Source: Pseudomonadota bacterium (GTDB taxonomy: Bacteria; Pseudomonadota; Gammaproteobacteria; Steroidobacterales; Woeseiaceae). Taken from it: a DNA stretch of 64,000 nt. Below, piece after piece: positions 1,876-35,524 of the stretch. The notes beneath the pieces were generated by a model. The model searched no databases. It saw only the letters and a program-made list of their open reading frames with translations, and was not told where the DNA came from. The position numbers were made by a program, and so were the translations under genes. Positions within the stretch are counted from its first letter, which is position 1; every line of letters starts with the position of its first letter. The DNA lies in assembly GCA_038747355.1 (NCBI GenBank), contig JBCDJX010000005.1:5380-69379 (forward strand), read 5' to 3'.

Positions 1876-3165
1876 TCAAAACACGTGCTCGATTGACACG
1901 GTGATCCGGTCACGCCCGTCGAACTGGCCAAACACACCCAGGCGAGTGCCGCTGAATCGATTGACGCTGGTTCGGATCGTCGTGCTGTCGCCCAGGCTGT
2001 AGCGCAGCGTCAAGGACGTCATGCGGTCACTGTCCTGCAACGACTGATAGGCCCGCGCTTCGAGCAAAAGCGTGTCGTAGCGGAAGCTCCTGCGCACAGC
2101 GACAGTGGCGAGTCGATCGCGGGCCGGCCGTACGAGGTTGGACGGCGCGTTGCTGATTCGGTCCTCGAGGTACTGCAGGTTGACGAACACCTGGCCGGGC
2201 GCATCGATATCCATACCGACGGCGAGCCTGCGCTGATCCCGTTGCACCGTTTGCAGGCCGCGCGCGTCACGCGTGTTGAAGTGCCGATTCGGTTGCAGGC
2301 TGGCTTCTACCCGCAGGGCGAGCGGTCCCAGCGCGGTTTCAAAGCTGGCGCCTGCAAGCGATCGGCGTTCGTAATAGCGCTCAACAACCGCGTCCGAACC
2401 CAGCTGGCGTAGTCGTCCAAGGGGTTCCGGATCCATGCCGGAATAGGCGAGCAAAGACAGGTCTCCCGCGCCGAGACTGCGTGACAGGCGGATGCCAAAG
2501 CCGGAGTCGGACAGGCCGTGTCCCGGCGAGTCGGTGATGATACGAGGCGACGGCTGCTCGGGGTCGGCGCCGAAGCGAAAGCGGGGTGCCCGGAGTTCGA
2601 ACCAGGCACCCGCGTCGGGGATCACATGGCCGCTGCCGTCGAGGTTGAGCAGCCATTCGCTTCGCCAGCGTCCAACCGTCAGGTCTGCATAGGCGCCCCA
2701 CAGTGCAATGCGTGACTGGTCGAAATCATCGAGGATGAACTCCCGGAACGACTGGGGATGGGTCACGTCGAGGACCTTGATGCCGTCGAGGCGACCCCAG
2801 TTCACCCGCTGTTTGCCAAGCCGCAACAGCAGCGTGTCGCTGCGGTAGGTCAGTGTGAGTTGGCTGAGATCGATGGCTCCCGAGTCGCCCAGCAGCAGGG
2901 GGCGACTGCCCTGCGCAAAGCTGTCCCGATTCATGTCACCGGGTTCCAGCTGGTTGTCCGGATCCAGCCAAAGCCGGGTGTCGACATTCAGCGTCCAGTA
3001 GTCGTTCAGCGGCAGGTCCGCACCCGGTTCCAGCATCAGCACCGTCTGCATGGTGTCGTCGGCATCGGTGCCGTAACCCCAACTGGCGGTCAGCGGTACA
3101 GTCCACGGTGTGGCGCCGGCAGCGCCGCAAGCAAACAACAAACCGATAAACAGCGTTGTGCGCAT
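1876..3165 (-). CDS. Outer-membrane beta-barrel protein of unknown specificity, last gene of the MMPL operon
   Basis: It has the signal peptide MRTTLFIGLLFACGAAGA and an alternating amphipathic strand pattern. The C-terminal ...ITVSIEHVF ends in an aromatic residue, as OM barrels do. Its ATG overlaps the MMPL gene stop by 1 nt (TAATG on the minus strand). Confidence 0.75.
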   Translation of the reverse strand: MRTTLFIGLLFACGAAGATPWTVPLTASWGYGTDADDTMQTVLMLEPGADLPLNDYWTLNVDTRLWLDPDNQLEPGDMNRDSFAQGSRPLLLGDSGAIDLSQLTLTYRSDTLLLRLGKQRVNWGRLDGIKVLDVTHPQSFREFILDDFDQSRIALWGAYADLTVGRWRSEWLLNLDGSGHVIPDAGAWFELRAPRFRFGADPEQPSPRIITDSPGHGLSDSGFGIRLSRSLGAGDLSLLAYSGMDPEPLGRLRQLGSDAVVERYYERRSLAGASFETALGPLALRVEASLQPNRHFNTRDARGLQTVQRDQRRLAVGMDIDAPGQVFVNLQYLEDRISNAPSNLVRPARDRLATVAVRRSFRYDTLLLEARAYQSLQDSDRMTSLTLRYSLGDSTTIRTSVNRFSGTRLGVFGQFDGRDRITVSIEHVF

Positions 3166-25346: not shown

Positions 25347-25922
25347 TCAGTCGTCGTCGCGATCCAATCGTGCCGGTGTCGTGCGCTGGAGTGGCTCAAC
25401 CTGGCCACGCAATTCGCCCGCCGGAAACGCAAATGTGTGCAGGTTCCAGTAGATCTGACCGTCGTCGATTGCCTGCGCGAGCTCATGCAGGTTACGTATC
25501 GACCGACCGATCGCACCTGCGCAGGCGTCAGCACCGGGGAATTGCGAATTGAACAGCTTGCCCGTGATCGTGTTGGCATCCAGTGTAATCGTCTCGCTGT
25601 TGTCATTGGCGGCACCCACCAGATCAACAGCGCCAATCGCGATCGGGCCGTTGGCGCCGGCCACGTTGCAATGCAGGTGCAGGCGAGAGACATCACCTTC
25701 GAGGTTCGAGAAGGTGACTCGAATCGTCGCGCGGGTGAAACGACGATTGATGCTGATAATGGCGAGCGCTTTGCCGGCGGACACGACCGCTTCAGTCTGA
25801 ACTTCCTGGTCCGCCGTCAGGACCGTTTTGGATTCATAGCGGAAACGTTGCTTGTCGGCTTCAGCCGTCGCGGCAATGGTCAGTGCGAGTACGCTCAGGG
25901 TAGTAACTACCAGGGTTTTCAT
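25347..25922 (-). CDS. Secreted CHRD-domain protein
   Basis: It has the signal peptide MKTLVVTTLSVLALTIAATAEA. The CHRD hallmarks are LHLHCNVAGANGPIAI and YWNLHTFAFPAGELRGQV. Confidence 0.85.
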   Translation of the reverse strand: MKTLVVTTLSVLALTIAATAEADKQRFRYESKTVLTADQEVQTEAVVSAGKALAIISINRRFTRATIRVTFSNLEGDVSRLHLHCNVAGANGPIAIGAVDLVGAANDNSETITLDANTITGKLFNSQFPGADACAGAIGRSIRNLHELAQAIDDGQIYWNLHTFAFPAGELRGQVEPLQRTTPARLDRDDD

Positions 25923-26087: not shown

Positions 26088-27776
26088 TTAATAGCCGCTG
26101 CCCTGAGACGCTTGCTGCGTTTCCGTCGGGCTGACGGTAAACCAGGTGCCGTAAACGCCGTTGACGTCGTCCGGACTCTGGTCGCCGGAAAAGAAGTACA
26201 GCGGGTCGCCCTGGTAGGTCCACTGGCGAGAGCCATCTTCGCGGTCGATGATGCCGAAGTCGCCGCTCGCCCTGTCCGCGTCGTTCGCGTACAGCGGCGG
26301 CCAGGTCACCGCGCAACCGCCGTTGCAGTCTGAATCGCCAGCACCGTCGCCGTCTGCGTCGTTGCGATCGTCATCAAAGCGATACAGCGTGAAGCCCGTT
26401 TTCAGTGACACGGTATCTGCACGTTCGCCGTTGCCGTCGATATCGGCGATAGACCCGCGCGCTTCGAAGATGTCGCCTTCATTGGCGTCGGCAATCACCT
26501 GGACCGGCGTCCGGCGTGCGAGGTGCCAGACCGTTCCGACCTGGTCGCCGTTCACGTCGCCTGCAGCGATGTCGCTGGCGAAGAAGTACATGGGCTCCCC
26601 GTCGATCGCCCACTGTCGTGCGCCGTCGTCGCGGTCGATGAGTGTGTAACGACCGAATTCCGTGGCGCCGGCATCGGCAAACAGTGGCGGCCAGGTCTGC
26701 GCACAACCGCCGTTGCAGTCCGAATCACCAACGCCGTCACCGTTCGCATCGTTAACGTCATTGTCGAACACGTACAGCGAGAAGCCTTCGAGTTCAGCGC
26801 GCTCGAAAGTCGGCGCGCCGTTTGCGTCCAGACCACGTACCGAAGTGGCGGCAACCACGATCGGGCCGAGCGCTGAGTCACCGATCTCGAACGGCGCAGG
26901 ACGCGCGACGTACCAGACGTTACCGGCGCCTTCGCCGTCGGTATCCCCAGGTGCCTGGTCCGGTGCAAAGAAATACAGCGGCAGACCGTTCAGCGCCCAC
27001 TGCCGCGTGCCATCGTCACGAGTGACGATCGTGAACGGGCCACCCTCGGTCGCGCCTGCGTCTGCAAACAGCGGCGGCCAGGTTTCTGCACAGCCGGCAT
27101 TGCAGTCGGAATCGCCCGCGCCATCGCCGTCGGCGTCGTTGCGATCGTTCTCGAAGGTGTACAGCGTGAAGCCTTCCCGGTCGTCGCGCGTGTCGACGAT
27201 GCCGCCGCTGCCGTCCAGTCCGCGAACCGAACCGCGACCAACAAACACCGTGCCTGTTGCGCTGGCGTCTACGTCGCCGCGCATCCAGGGGTCGGGACGT
27301 GCGACATACCAGACGCCGCCGACGCCCTCGCCGTTGATCTCGCCGGCGTTTGCGTCGCCGGCAAAGGTATACAGTGGCAGGCCCTTGAAAGCCCACTGCC
27401 GCGACGTGCCGTCGTCACGCGCGATAATGGAGAACGCACCGGTCGCTTCGGAGCTGTCGTCAGCCAGCAGCGGTGGCCAGTTGTCGGCGCAGCCGGCGTT
27501 GCAATCCGAATCGCCAGCCCCGTCGCCGTCGGTGTCGTTACGATCGTCTTCAAAGGTGTACAGCGTGAAGCCGTCCGCTTCCTTGGCGAAGACCTCTCCG
27601 ATGTCTGTCACGCTGGTCGCGCCCGGGGCCGCAGCCTGCGCAGCGTTCACCGCCGCGGGTGGCTCAGGGGTTTGCAGGGGTTCCAGCGGCGCGGGGTCGT
27701 CCGCGCTTGAGCTGCAGCCAACCAGTACGGCCAGGGCCGACGCGGCAAGCAGGTTCTTCAGTGTTGTGGTGTTCAT
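26088..27776 (-). CDS. Lipoprotein with four tandem COG4315 / 'Lipoprotein_15'-type repeats, each carrying an acidic Ca-binding-like insert
   Basis: The start is at the ATG at 27776: MNTTTLKNLLAASALAVLVGC contains the lipobox LVGC. The unit F(T/S)LY.F.(D/N)D.ND.(D/N)GDG.GDSDCN.GCA..WPPL....G.(F/Y).(I/L)I.R.DG.RQW...G.P(L/M)Y.F occurs four times. Confidence 0.88.
   Translation of the reverse strand: MNTTTLKNLLAASALAVLVGCSSSADDPAPLEPLQTPEPPAAVNAAQAAAPGATSVTDIGEVFAKEADGFTLYTFEDDRNDTDGDGAGDSDCNAGCADNWPPLLADDSSEATGAFSIIARDDGTSRQWAFKGLPLYTFAGDANAGEINGEGVGGVWYVARPDPWMRGDVDASATGTVFVGRGSVRGLDGSGGIVDTRDDREGFTLYTFENDRNDADGDGAGDSDCNAGCAETWPPLFADAGATEGGPFTIVTRDDGTRQWALNGLPLYFFAPDQAPGDTDGEGAGNVWYVARPAPFEIGDSALGPIVVAATSVRGLDANGAPTFERAELEGFSLYVFDNDVNDANGDGVGDSDCNGGCAQTWPPLFADAGATEFGRYTLIDRDDGARQWAIDGEPMYFFASDIAAGDVNGDQVGTVWHLARRTPVQVIADANEGDIFEARGSIADIDGNGERADTVSLKTGFTLYRFDDDRNDADGDGAGDSDCNGGCAVTWPPLYANDADRASGDFGIIDREDGSRQWTYQGDPLYFFSGDQSPDDVNGVYGTWFTVSPTETQQASQGSGY
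26130..27608 (-). repeat. Four in-frame tandem coding repeats, period about 385-400 nt (about 130 aa)
   Basis: Conserved cores recur on the plus strand near 26296, 26695, 27080 and 27480, e.g. ...ccgccgttgcagtc(t/c)gaatc(g/a)cc... ...tacagcg(t/a)gaagcc. Confidence 0.85.
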
Positions 27777-27829
27777 GTTTAGCGTCCTGTTGGAGTGATC
27801 GGGCGGCACCGCGAGGTGCCAGTTCAGCT

Positions 27830-27860
27830 CGTTAACCCCTGAGAAGCGCGCAAAGGTTCA
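27830..27860 (-). promoter_or_regulatory. Putative ECF-sigma-dependent promoter of the repeat-lipoprotein gene
   Basis: The minus strand reads TGAACC-TTTGCGCGCTTCTCAGG-GGTTAACG, ending 53 nt upstream of the ATG at 27776. It faces away from the sigma-gene promoter, which lies 56 nt away. Confidence 0.55.
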
Positions 27861-27915: not shown

Positions 27916-27946
27916 TGAACCTTTTGCGTCGCTTGTGGTGTGAACG
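27916..27946 (+). promoter_or_regulatory. Putative autoregulated ECF promoter of the sigma / anti-sigma / S8 operon
   Basis: The plus strand reads TGAACC-TTTTGCGTCGCTTGTGG-TGTGAACG. The -10-like element overlaps the GTG at 27940, so the ATG at 27973 (SD GGAAG 5 nt upstream) is the more likely start. Confidence 0.55.
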
Positions 27947-27972: not shown

Positions 27973-28563
27973 ATGGCGGCCCGAACGCTTATCCGCTCAG
28001 CCACCAGCTACGGCATGACCAGGACATCGACCGACGATGATGATCGCGCGCTGATCGGCCGCATCGCCTCACAGCGCGATGCGGGCGCCTTCGAGCGCCT
28101 CTACGACAGCTACCGGCGTCGCCTCGGCCCGTTCATGTTTCGCTTTGTGCGCGACACGGCGGCAAACGAGGAAGCCTTCAACGACATCATGCTGACCGTG
28201 TGGCGTAAGGCCTCGAGCTACAACGGCCGCTCCCGGGTGTCGACGTGGATTTTCGGAATTGCCTACCGTCAGTGCCTGAAAACCCTGCGCCAGCTGAATC
28301 GTGAGCCGGGCGGTGACGACAGCGTGGAAGTCGCTGTCGATGAGACGCGGTCGCTCGAACGGCAGGACCTGGTTGAGCGAGCGCTGGAGGGCTTGTCGGT
28401 GGAGCACCGACTGGTTATCGAGCTGTCGTACTTCGCCGGTCACAGTTATCAGGAAATCGCGGCCATCGCAGACTGCCCGGAGAACACGGTCAAGACCCGC
28501 GTGTTCCACGCGCGCAAACGCCTGAAGGCGATAATGAATGAACTGGGTGAGCAACCCTCGTAG
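27973..28563 (+). CDS. ECF-type RNA polymerase sigma factor
   Basis: Region 2 reads AFERLYDSYRRRLGPFMFRFVRDTAANEEAFNDIMLTVWRKASSY. The region-4 HTH is LSYFAGHSYQEIAAIADCPENTVKTRVFHARKRLK. The start is uncertain: GTG 27940, ATG 27973 or ATG 28015. Confidence 0.9.
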   Translation: MAARTLIRSATSYGMTRTSTDDDDRALIGRIASQRDAGAFERLYDSYRRRLGPFMFRFVRDTAANEEAFNDIMLTVWRKASSYNGRSRVSTWIFGIAYRQCLKTLRQLNREPGGDDSVEVAVDETRSLERQDLVERALEGLSVEHRLVIELSYFAGHSYQEIAAIADCPENTVKTRVFHARKRLKAIMNELGEQPS

Positions 28564-28583
28564 CTCACCGGGAGACGTGAACG

Positions 28584-29222
28584 ATGAACAAGGTGACTGA
28601 GCTGGCAACGCGCGAAGAGATCGATGACGATCTGCGCATCGTCGACTACGTGGCAGGCAAATTGTCCGGCGCAGAGCGTGCGGATTTTGAGCACCGCCTT
28701 GATTCGGATGCCATGCTCCGCGCGGCGGTCGACGAGGAGCGCGAACTGCGCGCCTTATTGACGACGCCCAGCGACGGCGACGTGCCTTCCTCTGCCGGGT
28801 TTGAACAACTGCGCGAGGAGGTTGAGATGGATGCGACGCGGAGGTTCTGGCGCAGTCCGGCACTGGCGGCCGGTGTTGCCGCGATGGCTCTGATCGCTTT
28901 GTTCACGCTGCAGCAGCCCGACGATGTTGCGCTTCCAATCACGCCAGAGGAGACGCCGCCGCCGTCGTTTACCGCGTTGTCGGAATCGCCGACGCCGCCG
29001 TCCGACCAGAATCGGGTCACGATTGTATTCGCTCCCGGTGTCACGACAGCGGAGCGGGCGGTCATCGCGTCACAGCTCGGCTTTGAACTGGTCGGCGGAC
29101 CGAACGCAGCCGGTGCCTGGACCGCTGTCACCACGCCGGGTGTTAACCGCGATGATCTGTCTCGCTGGCTTGCCGATCCACGCATCGACCTCGCCGAGCC
29201 GCAACGTTACGAGACTCCCTGA
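28584..29222 (+). CDS. Single-pass anti-sigma factor (zinc-less ASD) with a periplasmic I9-propeptide-like domain
   Basis: It immediately follows the sigma gene and has a GGAGA SD. The N-terminal anti-sigma domain reads LRIVDYVAGKLSGAERADFEHRLDSDAMLRAAVDEERELRALL, and the TM segment is ALAAGVAAMALIALFTL. After a Pro-rich linker comes RVTIVFAPGVTTAERAVIASQLGFELVGGPNAAGAWTAVTTPGVNRDDLSRWLADPRIDLAEPQ. Confidence 0.8.
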   Translation: MNKVTELATREEIDDDLRIVDYVAGKLSGAERADFEHRLDSDAMLRAAVDEERELRALLTTPSDGDVPSSAGFEQLREEVEMDATRRFWRSPALAAGVAAMALIALFTLQQPDDVALPITPEETPPPSFTALSESPTPPSDQNRVTIVFAPGVTTAERAVIASQLGFELVGGPNAAGAWTAVTTPGVNRDDLSRWLADPRIDLAEPQRYETP

Positions 29223-30436
29223 TGCGACTGTTATTGATTCTGTTGCTGGTCGCTGCCGCGATGCCCGAATCGGCCTGTGCCGACGAGTCGGCGGTCGGCG
29301 AATGGGTCATTGTGATGACAGACTCGCGGCCGGAGCGCCGGCGAGGCTGGTCCAGTGGCGTTGGCTACACCGGGACCTACAGTTATGCCGATGATCCTGA
29401 GCTGAAACGGCTGGCAAGACGACTTGCGCGAGATTTTCCGGTCACGGTGACGCGGCAGTGGCCGATCCGCTCGCTGTCGGTTCACTGCGTTGTCGTTCGA
29501 ATCGATCGCGATGCTGAGGCCACGCTTGCGGCGTTGCGCAGCGACAAGCGGGTCGAATGGGTGCAGCCGCTCAATGAGTTCCAGGGCTTGTCTCAGCAAC
29601 AGGACCCGTACCGGCACCTGCAGGCGTCGCTGGACACGCTGAACGTGGCGCCCCTGCACAACGAGTTTTCCGGACAGGGCATTCGAATTGTGATGGTGGA
29701 CTCCGGCGTGGAAGCGGACCATCCGGACATACAGCATGCGCTCGCTGACGTGATCGACTTTGTCGGGCAGCCGGCGGGCGGCGAGCGCCACGGCACCGGC
29801 GTCGCCGGCGTCATGGTGGCTCACGGTGCTAACGGCCAGGGCATCAGCGGTGTTGCTCCCGGTGCCGAGCTCTACGCGTACCGCGGTTGCTGGGAAGCGG
29901 ATGATGGCATCACACGTTGTAACAGTCTCACCTTGTCGCTGGCGCTGGATCACGCCATCGACAAACAGCCGCACGTGGTGAACCTGAGCCTGACCGGTCC
30001 AAGCGACCCCTTACTGGACCGTCTTGTTGCGCGTTTGCTGGAACAAGGCGCCGTTGTTGTGACGGCGCACGACAAACAGCGAGGGGAGCAACGATTCCCG
30101 TCACCGGCGGAAGGTGTTTTGGTCGTTCATGACGGATCCAGGGTGACGACGGATGCGCTGGGCGGTTTCTATGCGCCCGGACAGGCCGTGCTCACGGCCC
30201 AGCCGGGCCACGCCTACGATTTTATGGCGGGTTCGTCGCTGGCTGCCGCACACGTATCGGGTGTTTTGGCCTTGCTGCTGGAAGCACATCCATCGCGCGC
30301 AAGGTCCGATTCCGGCGCGGCGTTGCTCGCCAGTCTTCGTTCATCACCCGGAGGTTGGAGTATCGACGCCTGCCTGGCGTTGCATTTTCTCGACAGTCGC
30401 GTTCACTGCGACGCGGTCAACGCAGTCGGTAACTGA
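29222..30436 (+). CDS. Secreted S8 family (subtilisin-like) serine protease with N-terminal I9-like propeptide
   Basis: Its ATG overlaps the anti-sigma stop (TGATG), and it has the signal peptide MRLLLILLLVAAAMPESACA. The catalytic motifs are VMVDSGV (Asp), HGTGVAGVMVA (His), VVNLSLTG (Asn) and AGSSLAAAHVSGVLALL (Ser). Confidence 0.9.
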   Translation: MRLLLILLLVAAAMPESACADESAVGEWVIVMTDSRPERRRGWSSGVGYTGTYSYADDPELKRLARRLARDFPVTVTRQWPIRSLSVHCVVVRIDRDAEATLAALRSDKRVEWVQPLNEFQGLSQQQDPYRHLQASLDTLNVAPLHNEFSGQGIRIVMVDSGVEADHPDIQHALADVIDFVGQPAGGERHGTGVAGVMVAHGANGQGISGVAPGAELYAYRGCWEADDGITRCNSLTLSLALDHAIDKQPHVVNLSLTGPSDPLLDRLVARLLEQGAVVVTAHDKQRGEQRFPSPAEGVLVVHDGSRVTTDALGGFYAPGQAVLTAQPGHAYDFMAGSSLAAAHVSGVLALLLEAHPSRARSDSGAALLASLRSSPGGWSIDACLALHFLDSRVHCDAVNAVGN

Positions 30437-31112
30437 CGCGCAGCGCTACGGCGTCTTTGTCGACCGCGAAGATGCGCGTTGAGTCGTCGTCCACCGTGTT
30501 CCAGGTCAGCGACAGGTCATAACGACCTACGCTCAATCCGCCGCCCACTTCAAACCAGCCGATCATCTCATCGATCTCGCCGCCCACTCGACCGATCCCG
30601 GCCGAGGCGAGCAGATAGCCGCGGTCACTCACCGGCGGGCGGAAGGTCACGCCCGAATTCACCGCCGAAGCGCGGCCATAGTAGTCGGGTGCATAAGCCA
30701 GCATCAGGCCCAGCGACCGACTGACATGCCAGTCCGCACGAAATTCGTAATAGCTCCAGTCACTGACATCAATAAACTCGGCGCGCGACACGGACAGCTC
30801 CAGCGCCCTGTCCTCGCCGAGGGATCGGAAGTAGCCGAGGTGAGCATTCAGGTTGCGAGTCAACGAAAACCCCGCCGGCTGGCCGTCGGCATAGTAGCCG
30901 CCACCGCCGACGAACCAGCCTGAGGCAAAGTCATAGCCGCCACTCACACCAAACGCGGCATGACCATTGCTGATATTGGCGCCGCGATGTACGACTTCGG
31001 AAAACGCATGCAGCTCCAGCGATTCCCCTGCACGGGCAGTCGCTGCGAGAAACAGCAAGCTCAGCGCGGCGGCTCGCACTAGAAGTAGTCTGGCTCGTTG
31101 CCGGCAATCCAC
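30417..31112 (-). CDS. Outer-membrane beta-barrel protein (TIGR02001-like 'proteobacterial OM protein'; family tentative)
   Basis: It has the signal peptide ...LLLVRAAALSLLFLAATARA and Gly/Tyr-rich strands (GVSGGYDFASGWFVGGGGYYADG). The start is either ATG 31112 or GTG 31079; the latter overlaps the upstream gene stop by 1 nt. The 3' end overlaps the convergent S8 gene by 20 nt. Confidence 0.7.
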   Translation of the reverse strand: MDCRQRARLLLVRAAALSLLFLAATARAGESLELHAFSEVVHRGANISNGHAAFGVSGGYDFASGWFVGGGGYYADGQPAGFSLTRNLNAHLGYFRSLGEDRALELSVSRAEFIDVSDWSYYEFRADWHVSRSLGLMLAYAPDYYGRASAVNSGVTFRPPVSDRGYLLASAGIGRVGGEIDEMIGWFEVGGGLSVGRYDLSLTWNTVDDDSTRIFAVDKDAVALRVSYRLR

Positions 31113-31648
31113 TTGATATTGCAGCCGATGCTCGGCTTCTGATCCGGCGTCGGCGCATGGCCTGCCAACACGGCATCCAGTGCTGCTCGTACATCGCTGC
31201 CGTTCACCGGCAGGCCATTCGACGGGCGACTGTCATCGAGCTGTCCGCGGTAGGCGAGTTTCAATCGGTCGTCGAACACGTAGAAGTCGGGTGTGCACGC
31301 CGCTTTGTACGCCTTCGCAACGGACTGGTCTTCGTCAACGAGGTACGGAAAGGAGTACCCCAGGCGCAGCGCCTCCTCACGCATAAGGTCCGGTGCGTCG
31401 GCCGGGTAGTTAACGATGTCATTGCTGCTGACAGCAAAGATTGCAACGCCCTTCGGGGCGTAGTCTGTTCCGATCCTGGCGAGCTCTTCGCCGACGTGCT
31501 TCACGAACGGGCAGTGGTTACAGATAAACATCACCAGCGTCGCCGGCGCGCCCGCAGCCAGCTGGTAAATGTTGCCGTCCGGGTCGGGCAGCGAGAACGG
31601 GGGCGCGGGCGTACCCAGCGGAAGCATTTCGGATTCTACGGCGGCCAT
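31079..31648 (-). CDS. Thioredoxin-fold protein (peroxiredoxin-like, PRX_like1 type)
   Basis: The motifs LVMFICNHCPFVKH and PFSLPDPDGNIY, and the length, fit the AhpC/TSA-like 'thioredoxin family protein' group. Confidence 0.82.
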   Translation of the reverse strand: MAAVESEMLPLGTPAPPFSLPDPDGNIYQLAAGAPATLVMFICNHCPFVKHVGEELARIGTDYAPKGVAIFAVSSNDIVNYPADAPDLMREEALRLGYSFPYLVDEDQSVAKAYKAACTPDFYVFDDRLKLAYRGQLDDSRPSNGLPVNGSDVRAALDAVLAGHAPTPDQKPSIGCNIKWIAGNEPDYF

Positions 31649-31865
31649 GGCATCTCTTTCCGGTTGAGAGCGGCAAGAATAGCGCAGGTTTGAACGTCAT
31701 TTTTGACGGATCTGGCCCTTGCCAGAAGGCGTTTCGTGCATCGCAGCACATGGCCGCACCCGCGCGCACTCACGAAAACCGCGCGACACGTTGACCGTGG
31801 GTCCTTTGCCCCTGCAAGCCGCGTGGTCTGTCGGATACGGGCTGCCGAAACCATTTGCACCGGTC

Positions 31866-31900
31866 GTTAATTTTTGGTAACTTTTGTTAACACTTGATAA
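31866..31900 (+). promoter_or_regulatory. AT-rich island with four G-N-TAA pentamers phased exactly 10 bp apart; probable promoter/operator of the RHH-pspA operon
   Basis: GTTAA occurs at 31866, GGTAA at 31876, GTTAA at 31886 and GATAA at 31896, each preceded by a T-run. A possible sigma-70 promoter is TTGGTA (31874-79), N16, GATAAG (31896-901). The island is strikingly AT-rich in a GC-rich genome. Confidence 0.45.
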
Positions 31901-31924
31901 GCAAATGACAACAAACGTGATCAA

Positions 31925-32437
31925 ATGCCTAACAGAACCAAGCAGATCGGTGTTCGCCTCACCGACCAGGAAGCGGAATTTCTCGCAACACTGAAGGTGG
32001 AGAATGCCGTGACGCCCAGCGACAAGCTGCGCGCCATCATTGACGAGGCCCGTCAGCGACACCGGGGCACCGAAGACTACGCGGGCTCTTTGAAGCTGGT
32101 GCAGGACCTTGTCGCGCCGTCAGCACGCATCGTGCGACAGAGCGAGAACGAACAGCGCATGCATTCGGAGCTGGTGACGCGGCTCGAGGAGTGGGCGCCG
32201 GAGTGCATGGCGTATCTGCTGGCGTCAAACGGCAGAAATACCGCGCTGGACAAAAAACAGCTGGTCGAGATCGAAGCGGCCATCGTGCAACGGGTCATCG
32301 TCTTGATGACTTCGGTGTTGCAGTTGGCCGTAACTCGCACAGCCCCGTTGTACGACGGGCGTGCGCTCGACAAGTCGATCGAGCCGGTGCTGGAACTGGC
32401 CCGCGTCATCGACACCGTGCGCAAACAGAATAACTAG
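31925..32437 (+). CDS. Hypothetical protein with N-terminal ribbon-helix-helix-like motif, first gene of the pspA operon
   Basis: KQIGVRLTDQEAEFLATLKVENAVTPSDKLRAIIDEARQ fits the RHH strand-helix-helix pattern. A helical domain of about 120 aa with no motif I recognise follows. The stop lies 13 nt before the pspA ATG. Confidence 0.7.
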   Translation: MPNRTKQIGVRLTDQEAEFLATLKVENAVTPSDKLRAIIDEARQRHRGTEDYAGSLKLVQDLVAPSARIVRQSENEQRMHSELVTRLEEWAPECMAYLLASNGRNTALDKKQLVEIEAAIVQRVIVLMTSVLQLAVTRTAPLYDGRALDKSIEPVLELARVIDTVRKQNN

Positions 32438-32450
32438 GAGGAGGAGAACA

Positions 32451-33119
32451 ATGGCAGAAACAATGGCAAGACGAGTTAGTCGGCTGATCAGTGGCGGGTT
32501 CAACGCCGTGGTCGATGCCGTCGAGGGCGCCAGCCCGGAGACCGTTATGGAGGAGGCTATCCGTGAGGTCGATAGCGCTATCGACGAAGTGCGCGCTGAG
32601 CTGGGCGAAGTGATCGCCGGTACGCATCACGCGAGCAAGCGGCTGGCGGACGAAACCAACAAGCACACCGAACTTGGCAAGAAAGTGGAGCTCGCTGTGA
32701 CGGAAGGTCGAGACGACCTGGCGGAATCGGCGATCGCTCACCAGATGGACATCGAGGCAAAGATCCCGGTGCTGGAAGCCGCGATTGAGGACGGCAAGGC
32801 GAATGAGGCCGAGCTGGAAAAATACATCGCCGCGCTGAAGGCCCGCCGTCGTGAGATGGAAGAGGAGCTTGTGACCTTCCGTTCAGCCAAGTCGGAATCT
32901 CCGGCGATGAGTAACGGCGCAACTGGCGGATCGTCGGTTGACGGCAAGGTTGACAAGGCGACCGATGCATTCGACCGTGTTATGAACCGCGCGACCGGTG
33001 TGCCCGGCATGTCGACGCCGGAAGACCGCAAGAGCGCTAAAGACCTGGCGGAGCTGGATGAGCTGGCAAGAAAGTCGGCGATTGCAGAGCGCCTCGCCAA
33101 ACTCAAAGGTGACAGCTAA
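32451..33119 (+). CDS. pspA: PspA/IM30 (ESCRT-III-like) family protein
   Basis: The ATG at 32451 is preceded by AGGAGGAGGAG. The N-terminal amphipathic helix ARRVSRLISGGFNAVVDAVEGASPE is followed by long coiled coils typical of PspA/Vipp1. The upstream part of the ORF-track entry (32361) overlaps the preceding gene. Confidence 0.88.
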   Translation: MAETMARRVSRLISGGFNAVVDAVEGASPETVMEEAIREVDSAIDEVRAELGEVIAGTHHASKRLADETNKHTELGKKVELAVTEGRDDLAESAIAHQMDIEAKIPVLEAAIEDGKANEAELEKYIAALKARRREMEEELVTFRSAKSESPAMSNGATGGSSVDGKVDKATDAFDRVMNRATGVPGMSTPEDRKSAKDLAELDELARKSAIAERLAKLKGDS

Positions 33120-33121
33120 CG

Positions 33122-33781
33122 ATGATTGATCTCCTGACATCAGGCAACAACGCACCGTTCACGGTTGCACTACTCGTCATGTTCGCGATTGCGATTGCCG
33201 AGGGTGCGGCCCTGGTGCTGGGTGCCGGCTTGTCGGAAACGCTGGATGCGATGCTACCGGACATGGATGTCGATTTCGGCATTGAAGGTACCGGAGGCTC
33301 GGTCTTCACCAAGCTGCTTGGGTGGCTGCATGTCGGCAAGGTGCCGATCCTGATGATCCTGATCGTGTTCCTGACGGCATTTGGCCTGATCGGCCTTGTC
33401 ATGCAGTCCATGGTCAAGGGCGTCACCGGCTTTTACCTGCCGGCCTGGTTCGCCTCGGCGCCCGCCCTGTTCCTGTCGCTGCCCGTGGTTCGGGTTGGAG
33501 CAGGGGCGCTGTCGATGATCATGCCAAGCGATGAGACTGAAGCCGTGTCATCGAACACCTTTATCGGTCGTACCGCGGTCATCACGCTGGGAGAGGCGAA
33601 AGCCGGGTCTCCGGCCGAGGCCAAGGTCGTCGATGAGCACGGTTACTCACACTACATCATGGTTGAGCCTGATTCGGCAGATGTGAGTTTTTCGCAGGGC
33701 AGCAGCGTGCTGTTAACAGAAAACCTGGGCGCCGTTTTCCGCGGCATTGTCAGCGACAGCCCGGGACTGAGGGAGGAATAA
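33122..33781 (+). CDS. yqiJ: YqiJ-family inner-membrane protein (NfeD-like C-terminal OB domain)
   Basis: Its architecture and motifs parallel E. coli YqiJ as I recall it. The N-terminal TM is FTVALLVMFAIAIAEGAALVLG, and the middle TMs are GKVPILMILIVFLTAFGLIGLV. The C-terminal soluble domain is FIGRTAVITLGEAKAGSPAEAKVVDEHGYSHYIMVEP. It lies directly upstream of a flotillin gene. Confidence 0.8.
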   Translation: MIDLLTSGNNAPFTVALLVMFAIAIAEGAALVLGAGLSETLDAMLPDMDVDFGIEGTGGSVFTKLLGWLHVGKVPILMILIVFLTAFGLIGLVMQSMVKGVTGFYLPAWFASAPALFLSLPVVRVGAGALSMIMPSDETEAVSSNTFIGRTAVITLGEAKAGSPAEAKVVDEHGYSHYIMVEPDSADVSFSQGSSVLLTENLGAVFRGIVSDSPGLREE

Positions 33782-35524
33782 ATGAACAGAGATAGTCTTT
33801 TGGGAGGAGCAGGCATGGACATAATGCAAATCGGTGTCATCACCATTGTTGTCCTGGTTGCGATGATCGCGCTCGGGCTGATTTTGTCACGCCTGTACCA
33901 CCGCGCCTCGAAGGAAGTGTCGTTCGTCAGGACGGGTTTCCGCGGGCAGACGGTCATTATCAATGGCGGCGCCATGGTGCTGCCGGTGCTGCACGAGATC
34001 ATTCCGGTCAACATGAACACCCTGCGGCTGGAGGTGAAGCGTTCCAACGAACAGGCCCTGATTACCCGCGACCGCATGCGTGTCGACGTAACGGCCGAGT
34101 TCTACGTGCGTGCCAAGCCGACCGAGGAGGCGATCGCCGCCGCTGCGCAGACGCTGGGTCTGAAGACCATGCATCCGGAGCAGCTGAAGCAACTGGTCGA
34201 GGGTAAGTTCGTTGACGCCCTGCGTGCGGTTGCCGCCGAGATGGCGATGGAAGAGCTGCACGAGAAGCGTGTCGACTTCGTACAGAAAGTGCAGCAAGTG
34301 GTGTCTGAAGACCTGCTCAAGAACGGTCTCGAGCTTGAGTCCGTGTCATTGACCGGTCTTGACCAGACGGGCTTTGAGCACTTCAATCCGCAAAACGCGT
34401 TCGACGCCGAGGGTCTGACGAAGCTGACCGAAGCCATCGAGTCACGTCGCAAGAAGCGCAACGATATCGAGCAGGATACCGCGGTCCAGATCCAGACCAA
34501 GAACCTGGAAGCGGAGCGGGAAAAACTCGAGATCGGCCGGGAAGAAGAGTACGCAAGGCTCGCCCAGCAGCGCGAAATCGAGATTCGCAGGGCGTCGCAG
34601 GCCGCGGCCATTGCCGCCGAGCAGGCAGAGAAGCTGCGCGAGTCCGAGGAAGCCAAGATCACCTCGCAGCGCGAGGTGGACATGGCCAGCATTCTTGCTG
34701 AGCGTTCCGTTGAGGAAGAGCGCATCGAAAAAGAGCGCTTGCTGAAGGAGCGTGAGGTCGAAAAGGCCAAGTCGGTTGAACTCGCCGAGCAGGAACGTGC
34801 GATTGCGGTTGCCGAGAAATCCAAGGAAGAGTCAATCGCCCAGGCTGAAGCTGACAAGGCACGTGCGCTTGCCGTTAAGGAAGAGGAGCTGGTTCGCACG
34901 GTACGCCAGGTTGAAACGGCAGAACGTGAGAAGCAGGTAGAGCTGGTACAGGCTCGCCAGGCGGCTGAGAAGGATGCGATCTCGATTACGGTCGCAGCCG
35001 ATGCCGAGAAGCAGGCTGCCGAGGACAAGGCCGTCGCCGTGCAGACGCTGGCGGAAGCCGAGGCCTCGAAAGATCGTATCGAAGCCAAGGGTGCATCGGA
35101 TGCCGAAATGCTGCGTGCGGCCGCTGCGGCGAAGACCTACGAGGTCAACGCAGAGGGCGAGCGCGCGCTCAACGAGGCGGCCAACCTGCTGTCGGAGGAG
35201 ATCATCAATATGAAGATCCGCCTCGAGATGCTCGAGAAACTGCCGGCAATCATCGCTGAGAGTGCGAAGCCGATGCAGCAGATCGACGACATCAAGATCA
35301 TCCAGGTCGATGGTCTGAACGGCGCACCGGTCGGATCCAACGGCGAAGCCGTCGCCCATCAGGGCAGCATGGCAGACCAGCTGGTTTCGAGCGCGCTGAA
35401 GTACCGGGCACAGGCACCGCTGGTTGATTCAATACTCGACGAGATCGGTATGGACGGCAGCGACCTCAACGGCCTGACGGCCGGGCTGACCGGAAACGGC
35501 GCTGCCAAGCCCAAGTCCGAGTAA
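33782..35524 (+). CDS. yqiK: Flotillin-like SPFH/Band-7 protein (YqiK type)
   Basis: The junction reads TAAATG with a GGGAGGA SD. An N-terminal TM segment is followed by the SPFH core (FVRTGFRGQTVIINGGAMVLPVLHEIIPVNMNTLRLEV). A very long Glu/Ala/Lys-rich coiled coil and a flotillin C-terminal region complete the protein. Confidence 0.9.
   Translation: MNRDSLLGGAGMDIMQIGVITIVVLVAMIALGLILSRLYHRASKEVSFVRTGFRGQTVIINGGAMVLPVLHEIIPVNMNTLRLEVKRSNEQALITRDRMRVDVTAEFYVRAKPTEEAIAAAAQTLGLKTMHPEQLKQLVEGKFVDALRAVAAEMAMEELHEKRVDFVQKVQQVVSEDLLKNGLELESVSLTGLDQTGFEHFNPQNAFDAEGLTKLTEAIESRRKKRNDIEQDTAVQIQTKNLEAEREKLEIGREEEYARLAQQREIEIRRASQAAAIAAEQAEKLRESEEAKITSQREVDMASILAERSVEEERIEKERLLKEREVEKAKSVELAEQERAIAVAEKSKEESIAQAEADKARALAVKEEELVRTVRQVETAEREKQVELVQARQAAEKDAISITVAADAEKQAAEDKAVAVQTLAEAEASKDRIEAKGASDAEMLRAAAAAKTYEVNAEGERALNEAANLLSEEIINMKIRLEMLEKLPAIIAESAKPMQQIDDIKIIQVDGLNGAPVGSNGEAVAHQGSMADQLVSSALKYRAQAPLVDSILDEIGMDGSDLNGLTAGLTGNGAAKPKSE

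Follow-up and report, generated by a model that had tools for sequence, protein, structure and literature searches.

Which protease triggers the release of an extracytoplasmic function (ECF) sigma factor, and what the periplasmic domain of its anti-sigma factor senses, is to our knowledge unknown for most groups of ECF sigma/anti-sigma pairs. The locus described here raises the question whether a candidate for each of the two roles is encoded in one and the same operon. It lies within a stretch of 64,000 nucleotides (nt) of contig JBCDJX010000005.1 from a gammaproteobacterium of the Woeseiaceae (the window; coordinates are window positions unless another locus is named). The open reading frame list and the sequence reveal at 27973-30436 a run of genes for an ECF sigma factor, a cysteine-free single-pass anti-sigma factor and a secreted S8 subtilase. 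The periplasmic domain of the anti-sigma factor appears to be a relative of the prodomain of the protease encoded downstream, and it is tentatively proposed that docking of this domain on the mature protease gates the release of the sigma factor. The features needed for the argument are the following:

27973-28563, plus strand: ECF (group 4) sigma factor (Pfam Sigma70_r2 and Sigma70_r4_2; TIGR02937)
28584-29222, plus strand: anti-sigma open reading frame, 212 amino acids (open reading frame list); predicted single-pass class I anti-sigma factor, zinc-less in this clade (NF052375, AlphaFold2, Foldseek)
28848-28910, plus strand: predicted transmembrane segment of the anti-sigma factor, residues ~89-109, N-in/C-out, preceded by RRFWR (AlphaFold2 helix 95-109)
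28968-28982, plus strand: juxtamembrane linear motif [YF]xTL[ST], here FTALS, residues 129-133 (alignment of 121 representatives)
29010-29201, plus strand: subtilase-prodomain-like domain, residues 143-206, followed by the tail QRYETP (AlphaFold2, Foldseek, PF22148, hhalign)
29220-29224, plus strand: stop/start overlap TGATG of the anti-sigma and S8 genes (TGA 29220-29222, ATG 29222-29224, one base in common)
29222-30436, plus strand: S8 open reading frame, 404 amino acids (open reading frame list); predicted secreted subtilisin-type S8 protease with signal peptide (residues 1-20), prodomain (residues ~26-120, ending LNEF) and catalytic domain (residues ~130-404)
29699-29701, 29789-29791, 29981-29983 and 30236-30238, plus strand: codons of the S8 catalytic residues D160, H190, N254 and S339 (alignment)

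A first-pass annotation of this DNA had claimed that the anti-sigma and S8 genes overlap in the sequence TGATG, and the overlap with its single shared base is indeed present. The two peptides that it quoted are found verbatim in the translations, RVTIVFAPGV...DLAEPQ at residues 144-207 of the anti-sigma factor and ...DAEATLAALRSDKRVEWVQPLNEF at residues 97-120 of the protease.

The prodomain-like domain of the anti-sigma factor

The C-terminal domain had been described as having a beta-alpha-beta-beta-alpha-beta pattern, and the same topology was obtained in both models computed with AlphaFold2 (AF2). In the full-length model, which was built from 8 sequences, it comprises residues 143-204 with a predicted local distance difference test score (pLDDT) of 73-84, and in the model of the domain alone, built from 14 sequences, the topology is identical (pLDDT 86, predicted template modelling score 0.71). 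In a Foldseek comparison of the domain model with the Protein Data Bank (PDB), all ranks from 1 to 11 went to subtilase prodomains or I9 inhibitors, with template modelling (TM) scores of about 0.55-0.70. The top match was the prosegment of subtilisin BPN' (3cnq_P; E value 1.2e-3, TM 0.65/0.68, root-mean-square deviation (rmsd) 2.3 Å over 67 columns). The other matches in this group include a second structure of the BPN' prosegment (1spb_P), the propeptide of subtilisin E (1scj_B), pro-subtilisin E (3whi), the prodomain of PC1/3 (9fie, chain 9fie_B, as well as 9fic and 9fid) and POIA1 (1itp), which is the founding I9 inhibitor. The domain can thus be superposed on solved prodomains, the best E value being marginal.

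Profile comparisons point in the same direction. Among 121 representatives of the anti-sigma family, 49 match the Pfam family PF22148 (Fervidolysin_NPro-like) at E<=0.01, and zf-HC2 and PF22148 are the only Pfam families that recur in this set. When five relatives were scanned singly, two exceeded the gathering score of PF22148, namely P0151 with 23.4 bits and P0235, which has two tandem domains, with 45.7 bits. A direct comparison of the domain with the cognate S8 propeptide using hhalign yielded a probability of 50 % (P value 1.6e-4) with profiles of 14 sequences each, and 92.6 % (P value 4.5e-7, score 37.8, 53 columns) when the profiles were enlarged to 121 and 120 sequences, respectively. 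The match extends from helix 1 to strand 4, with DPRIDLAEPQRY aligned to DKRVEWVQPLNE. In the controls, the highest scores after shuffling of columns were 20.8 for the 14-sequence profiles (200 shuffles) and 15.7 for the 121/120-sequence profiles (100 shuffles), and reversed profiles scored 11-14. Searches with profiles of the domain and of the S8 propeptide against PDB sequences gave no significant match, the sole suggestive one being the protease propeptide 8c4z_A with an E value of 0.4. On the basis of these comparisons the domain is best regarded as a genuine, albeit divergent, member of the subtilase prodomain superfamily that is homologous to the own prodomain of the neighbouring protease.

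A shared fold does not have to mean a shared partner, and one alternative, which we consider unlikely, is that there is no direct interplay at all. The protease would then be a mere co-transcribed output of the sigma factor, the ferredoxin-like domain would sense another ligand or protein, and its likeness to prodomains would reflect a remote ancestry without retained function. The fold is indeed very common, RRM, S6, HMA and BLUF domains occur in the lists of structural matches, and the S8 protease possesses a complete prodomain of its own. Moreover, there is a precedent in the algU-mucABCD operon, since MucD is encoded in the operon and is not bound by the anti-sigma factor. However, prodomains and not other ferredoxin-like folds fill all of the 11 top Foldseek ranks, generic representatives of the fold (RRM, ribosomal S6, BLUF) following further down with mostly lower TM scores of about 0.3-0.56, and it is subtilase prodomains and the cognate propeptide in particular that the domain resembles at the profile level. 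A third counterargument is the genomic linkage, with an adjacency above 90 %, a conserved overlap and a family of thousands.

Conservation of the three-gene unit

A word-indexed search retrieved only 8 close relatives of the anti-sigma factor. An exhaustive search with the domain profile retrieved 3,497 clusters at 50 % identity with E<=1e-3, of which 742 remained at E<=1e-10, and nearly all of the 3,497 are proteins of 190-260 amino acids with the domain at the C-terminus. The carriers include marine Gammaproteobacteria, methanotrophs, Lysobacteraceae and many soil metagenomes, and the names that the relatives bear in public databases are uninformative ('zf-HC2 domain-containing protein', 'anti-sigma factor RsiW' or hypothetical).

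The gene order was followed in three sets of loci. All loci found with the S8 protease as seed (39-64 % identity), including five distant ones, have the order sigma gene, gene for a protein of ~200-270 amino acids, S8 gene, and they include genomes of Woeseiaceae-like bacteria, Methylococcaceae and Lysobacteraceae. The triad is likewise present in 11 of 11 genome loci found by alignment of the anti-sigma factor; a convergent Gcw_chp-like gene and a divergent Lipoprotein_15 gene were each found in 10 of these, and a CHRD gene is nearby in about half. The third set came from a scan of metagenomes for the cytoplasmic motif LLPW[YAH][VA]NGT, a seed that is independent of both the C-terminal domain and the protease. 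Adjacency of an S8 gene was scored in the 57 motif-seeded loci with at least 500 bp of downstream sequence, and it lies directly downstream in 52 of them, a 53rd having a frameshifted S8 gene; a sigma gene is located upstream in 59 of 63. The junction between the anti-sigma and S8 genes could be compared in 55 metagenome loci, in which a 4-base overlap (26), a 1-base overlap (6) and zero spacing (3) were observed, the remainder lying mostly within 7 nt. A fourth conserved partner was sought across the broad family and none was found; the genes past the S8 gene are heterogeneous, and therefore the triad is the conserved unit.

The claimed synteny and stop/start overlap are thus conserved far beyond the clade (11/11 genome loci, 52/57 motif-seeded loci). 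The first-pass annotation had staked its interpretation on the fold, on a profile match and on the synteny, and none of the three contradicts it: the fold is seen in the AF2 model and its Foldseek matches, profile matches were negative for Inhibitor_I9 but were obtained with PF22148 in relatives and with the cognate propeptide, and the synteny is seen in the conserved triad.

Six short proteins that consist of the domain only (P0129-P0134) were considered as free inhibitors and rejected, as at least P0130 and P0131 belong to anti-sigma genes of the module that are split, probably by a frameshift. In two loci (L018, 4682-5303; L019, 4606-5252) the anti-sigma gene is divided into two open reading frames, the second of which encodes only the prodomain-like part. 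The split is probably an assembly indel, the alternative being true pseudogenization or a split gene.

The anti-sigma factor and its linker

The N-terminal part of the anti-sigma factor matches NCBIfam NF052375 weakly (E value 6.3e-8, residues 20-112, under the cut-off of the family). In the AF2 model it forms a four-helix domain with a pLDDT of about 90, for which Foldseek retrieved the anti-sigma factor RslA (3hug_B) with a probability of 0.97. A helical N-terminal anti-sigma domain encoded next to a sigma gene is what characterizes class I. The domain had been described as zinc-less, which is borne out because the protein does not contain a single Cys. The zinc motif HxxxCxxC, absent here, is present in 89 of the 121 relatives, and zf-HC2 is matched by 91 of 121. 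Since the window protein lacks Cys and most relatives carry the motif, the clade of the window is best interpreted as a zinc-less derivative of a ZAS family.

The description of one transmembrane segment and a Pro-rich linker also agrees with the sequence, in which a single hydrophobic stretch (residues ~89-109), flanked by Arg residues on its N-terminal side, is followed by a Pro-rich region at residues 110-142. Within this region, ~20 residues beyond the membrane, lies the motif [YF]xTL[ST], which is the best-conserved periplasmic element outside the domain; across the 121 representatives the aromatic residue is conserved in 120, T in 114, L in 111 and S/T in 107. The linker around FTALS is predicted to be disordered (AF2 pLDDT < 50), and the motif is a candidate cleavage or docking site.

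The S8 protease

The protease matches PF00082 with an E value of 3.9e-24 (85.9 bits against a gathering score of 21.8), and its nearest sequences in the PDB are the true subtilisins BPN' and E (BPN' 2.5e-20). In an alignment of 120 homologues, D160 and H190 are present in 120/120 and S339 and the oxyanion residue N254 in 119/120, so that the order Asp-His-Ser, the oxyanion Asn and the PF00082 match that define MEROPS subfamily S8A are all found. Two pairs of Cys residues, presumably disulfide-bonded, are conserved to different degrees, C223/C233 in 120/120 and C384 and C396 in 112 and 103 homologues, respectively. Position 120 at the end of the propeptide, F120 in the window protein, is aromatic in all 120. 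The signal peptide is of the lipoprotein type in some clades. Because of the conserved catalytic residues, the signal peptide, the aromatic end of the propeptide and the kinship to subtilisins, the protein is predicted with some confidence to be an active, exported and self-processing subtilase with a probable preference for aromatic residues at P1.

The earlier claim that the protease has its own I9-like propeptide holds as far as the presence of a propeptide is concerned, which occupies residues ~26-120; sub-threshold matches of this region to PF22148 were obtained for 9 of 14 orthologues. This propeptide has, after strand 1 and ahead of helix 1, a highly conserved insert of 20-25 residues (RPxRRRGWSSGVGYxGxYxY; residues 34-59, 29321-29398), which is absent from the anti-sigma domain and from classical subtilisin propeptides.

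The propeptides suggest a further explanation for the domain, namely that it is a tethered inhibitor or chaperone, which keeps the protease inactive or assists its folding at the inner membrane, while the sigma factor would be released by another event and the fusion to an anti-sigma factor would only secure co-expression and localization. Prodomains, once cleaved, inhibit their subtilases tightly, the anti-sigma factor ends a few residues past the last strand, as a cleaved propeptide does, and the tandem variant P0235 with its two domains would also fit. Nevertheless, this explanation seems very unlikely to us, as the own prodomain of the protease already covers folding and latency, and the constant fusion to an anti-sigma domain, with zf-HC2 in 91/121 relatives and a sigma gene upstream in 59/63 loci, would be left unexplained. 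P0235 is encoded at 2265-3056 of locus L101, where its two tandem prodomain-like domains are followed by a larger S8 protease of 569 amino acids.

A possible mechanism of sigma factor release

The three genes would constitute a self-contained signalling module, in which the class I anti-sigma factor would hold the ECF sigma factor at the inner membrane. We propose that the prodomain mimic of the anti-sigma factor docks on the mature S8 protease and that proteolysis dependent on this protease gates the release of the sigma factor, a mechanism that we regard as a serious possibility, though short of probable. After removal of its own propeptide, the protease would be met by the mimic much as subtilisin is bound by its propeptide after cleavage. 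The sheet of the mimic would pack on two surface helices of the protease, the short C-terminal tail would point toward the active-site cleft, and the mimic would serve as a temporary inhibitor and slow substrate, as propeptides do. The site-1 event would be either the degradation of the mimic or a cut within [YF]xTL[ST], which would leave a short periplasmic stub, and the stub would then be a substrate for a site-2 intramembrane protease, whereby the sigma factor would be freed. Removal of the folded periplasmic part is the usual precondition for site-2 cleavage.

Several observations weigh against this proposal. The AF2 models were built from shallow alignments of 8 and 14 sequences. Foldseek gave no match at E<=1e-3, the best value of 1.2e-3 being marginal, and the fold class is common; therefore, the structure alone is suggestive and not conclusive. 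The first-pass annotation had suggested a search with the hidden Markov model of Inhibitor_I9 (PF05922), which gave no match for the window protein at E<=1, for 14 domains at E<=10 or for any of the 121 relatives at E<=0.01, and the window protein itself does not have any Pfam match for the domain, PF22148 included. The label I9 is thus justified at the level of the fold and superfamily (Foldseek, PF22148 in relatives, hhalign), but not as membership in Pfam Inhibitor_I9. Little conservation is seen across the broad family in the tail that follows the final strand, and this makes it less likely that the mimic occupies the active site in a strictly product-like manner. An adjoining S8 gene is absent in 4 of the 57 motif-seeded loci. 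Finally, a protease that destroys the anti-sigma factor of its own operon would create a positive feedback, and an extra brake would be required.

The sign of the feedback is reversed in another explanation, protective titration, which appears improbable to us. In this case the mature protease would stabilize a metastable mimic, and when the protease is scarce or occupied by substrates or inhibitors, the mimic would unfold and be removed by general periplasmic proteases, so that the sigma factor is freed and the synthesis of protease and anti-sigma factor increases. S8 activity would in this way be kept in homeostasis by the module through negative feedback. Structure, homology and synteny support this view just as they support docking followed by S8-dependent cleavage, and it has additional points in its favour: subtilisin prodomains in isolation remain largely unfolded as long as the enzyme is not bound, and both an equimolar output via the stop/start overlap and the lack of any other conserved partner or target would fit a self-regulating loop. 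The isolated domain was, however, modelled confidently by AF2, although this has little bearing on stability, and a specific site of cleavage or docking would account more readily for the strong conservation of the linker motif.

The sigma factor and its promoters

The gene directly upstream of the anti-sigma gene encodes a protein that consists of the sigma-2 and sigma-4 regions only, as is characteristic of ECF sigma factors. Both Pfam matches (Sigma70_r2, E value 6.5e-11; Sigma70_r4_2, 2e-14) are over the gathering score, and the match to TIGR02937 (sigma70-ECF) reaches 83.9 bits at a cut-off of 42.9; an NCBIfam scan of the protein yielded no specific equivalog over its cut-off. The open reading frame list places the start of the gene at GTG 27940, a position that falls within the conserved -10 element of the promoter of this gene. 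The sequence GGAAG precedes ATG 27973, and a start at this ATG gives a protein of 196 amino acids, orthologues being annotated with 195-205. Because of the overlap of the -10 element with 27940 and the length of the orthologues, ATG 27973 and not GTG 27940 is probably the start of the gene.

Two putative ECF-type promoters are present between the sigma gene and the divergent Lipoprotein_15 gene:

27832-27859, minus strand: ECF-type promoter facing the Lipoprotein_15 gene, with TGAACCTTT as the -35 element and GTTAA as the -10 element
about 27917-27944, plus strand: ECF-type promoter of the sigma/anti-sigma/S8 operon, TGAACCTTT-N13-GTGTGAA

The two copies form an inverted pair, in which TGAACCTTT is separated by a spacer of 13-14 nt from GT(T/G)AA, and the pattern GAACCTTT-N11-16-GTNAA is matched twice in the 64 kb of the window, where 0.01 matches are expected, the range of expected values for the motif being 0.01-0.12. 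Of 15 related loci, 14 have the plus-strand motif TGAACC(N)TTT...(C/T)GT in front of the sigma gene, and the inverted motif on the minus strand is also present in L001, L007, L012, L014, L015 and L016. As the plus-strand copy has the AAC-containing -35 element and the -10 element of the CGT/GT type that are typical of autoregulatory promoters, we infer that it is used by this sigma factor and that the sigma factor would regulate its own synthesis. The targets of the freed sigma factor would then be the operon that encodes it and, in this clade, also the gene for the Lipoprotein_15 protein.

Neighbouring genes

Three further genes around the module are the following:

26088-27809, minus strand: secreted Lipoprotein_15 protein with 8 repeats (PF03640, E value 5e-71), divergent from the operon
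25347-25922, minus strand: CHRD-domain protein, which accompanies the module in the Woeseiaceae-like clade
30417-31112, minus strand: Gcw_chp/TorF-like putative outer-membrane beta-barrel protein, convergent, its 3' end overlapping the S8 gene by 20 nt

These genes are clade-specific companions of the module. Each PF03640 repeat of the Lipoprotein_15 protein carries the motif DSDCNxGC, the gene was syntenic in 11 of 17 loci compiled earlier, and, given the promoter that faces it, it is likely a member of the regulon in this clade. The Gcw_chp-like protein of the window reaches a score of only 0.061 against TIGR02001, and its orthologues carry PF09694; the gene is present in most of the related genome loci and in some distant ones (L003, L005, L018 and L019); no instance came to light in the broad family.

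Further downstream, at 31079-35524, lies a cluster of the membrane-stress type that comprises genes for an AhpC/TSA-family redoxin (31079-31648, minus strand), PspA/IM30 (32361-33119), YqiJ (33122-33781) and a flotillin/Band_7 protein (33782-35524). It may be a coincidence that the module of the Methylococcaceae locus L005 likewise has a Band_7/NfeD pair next to it.

Significance and comparison with known systems

In the searchable literature, no paper was found that ties an ECF sigma/anti-sigma pair to an S8 protease or to a prodomain-like sensor. In the main text of the ECF reclassification (PMC7826278) there is no reference to subtilases; a bare listing of an S8 neighbour for some ECF group is possible beyond that text. 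It is conceivable, though doubtful, that a large family of anti-sigma factors recruits a dedicated, co-encoded subtilisin as site-1 protease through an exosite copied from a subtilase prodomain, an arrangement that would be a bacterial counterpart of the eukaryotic S1P/S2P system. A plausible origin of the copy is that the neighbouring segment coding for the propeptide was duplicated and joined to the gene upstream. As candidates for both the protease and the sensor are written into this operon, there is a concrete and testable mechanism for about 3,500 clusters. If it is true, the subtilases would join the short list of bacterial site-1 proteases, the prodomain fold would be used as a signalling receptor rather than as a folding cap, and a compact, orthogonal, protease-controlled transcription switch would be available for synthetic biology.

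With the propeptides of subtilisins BPN' and E and the I9 inhibitors (1SPB, 3CNQ, 1SCJ; POIA1, 1ITP), the anti-sigma domain shares the fold (TM 0.65-0.68, rmsd 2.2-2.4 Å) and a similar ending of the last strand, D-x-R-V/I-x-h-h-E/Q-P, followed by a short tail, and its relatives match the fervidolysin prodomain family PF22148. In contrast to subtilase prodomains, it is located at the C-terminus of a separate, membrane-anchored regulator and not N-terminal to a catalytic domain, and in contrast to the cognate S8 propeptide it does not contain the conserved 20-residue insert.

Among the regulatory systems, the sigmaE-RseA-DegS/RseP pathway of E. coli also sequesters an ECF sigma factor by a single-pass class I anti-sigma factor, a serine protease is the candidate site-1 enzyme in the system proposed here, and in both cases the folded periplasmic domain would presumably be removed before site-2 cleavage. 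However, DegS is an S1 protease of the HtrA family, whereas the candidate enzyme here is an S8 subtilase that is encoded in the operon and translationally coupled, and RseA is shielded by RseB, whereas the sensor domain of the present anti-sigma factor mimics the protease's own prodomain. The AlgU-MucA-MucB-MucC-MucD system of Pseudomonas shares with the module a gene for a periplasmic serine protease in the operon of an ECF sigma factor and its anti-sigma factor, but MucD is of the HtrA type and clears inducing signals, and MucA does not have a domain that resembles parts of MucD.

In eukaryotes, a first cut of SREBP and ATF6 by the subtilase S1P/SKI-1 licenses intramembrane cleavage by S2P, and the same would apply here if the proposed docking and cleavage take place. 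There is no evidence for a common descent of the pathways, and the substrate here differs in that it carries a prodomain mimic and is encoded together with the enzyme. The RsiV-sigmaV system, in which the anti-sigma factor is a direct receptor for lysozyme (PMC4183432), is an example of an extracytoplasmic anti-sigma domain that binds a hydrolase and thereby controls its proteolytic activation, as would be the case in the module described here. RsiV, however, recognizes an enzyme of foreign origin and is cleaved by signal peptidase, whereas the presumed partner of the present anti-sigma factor is its cognate, co-encoded protease.

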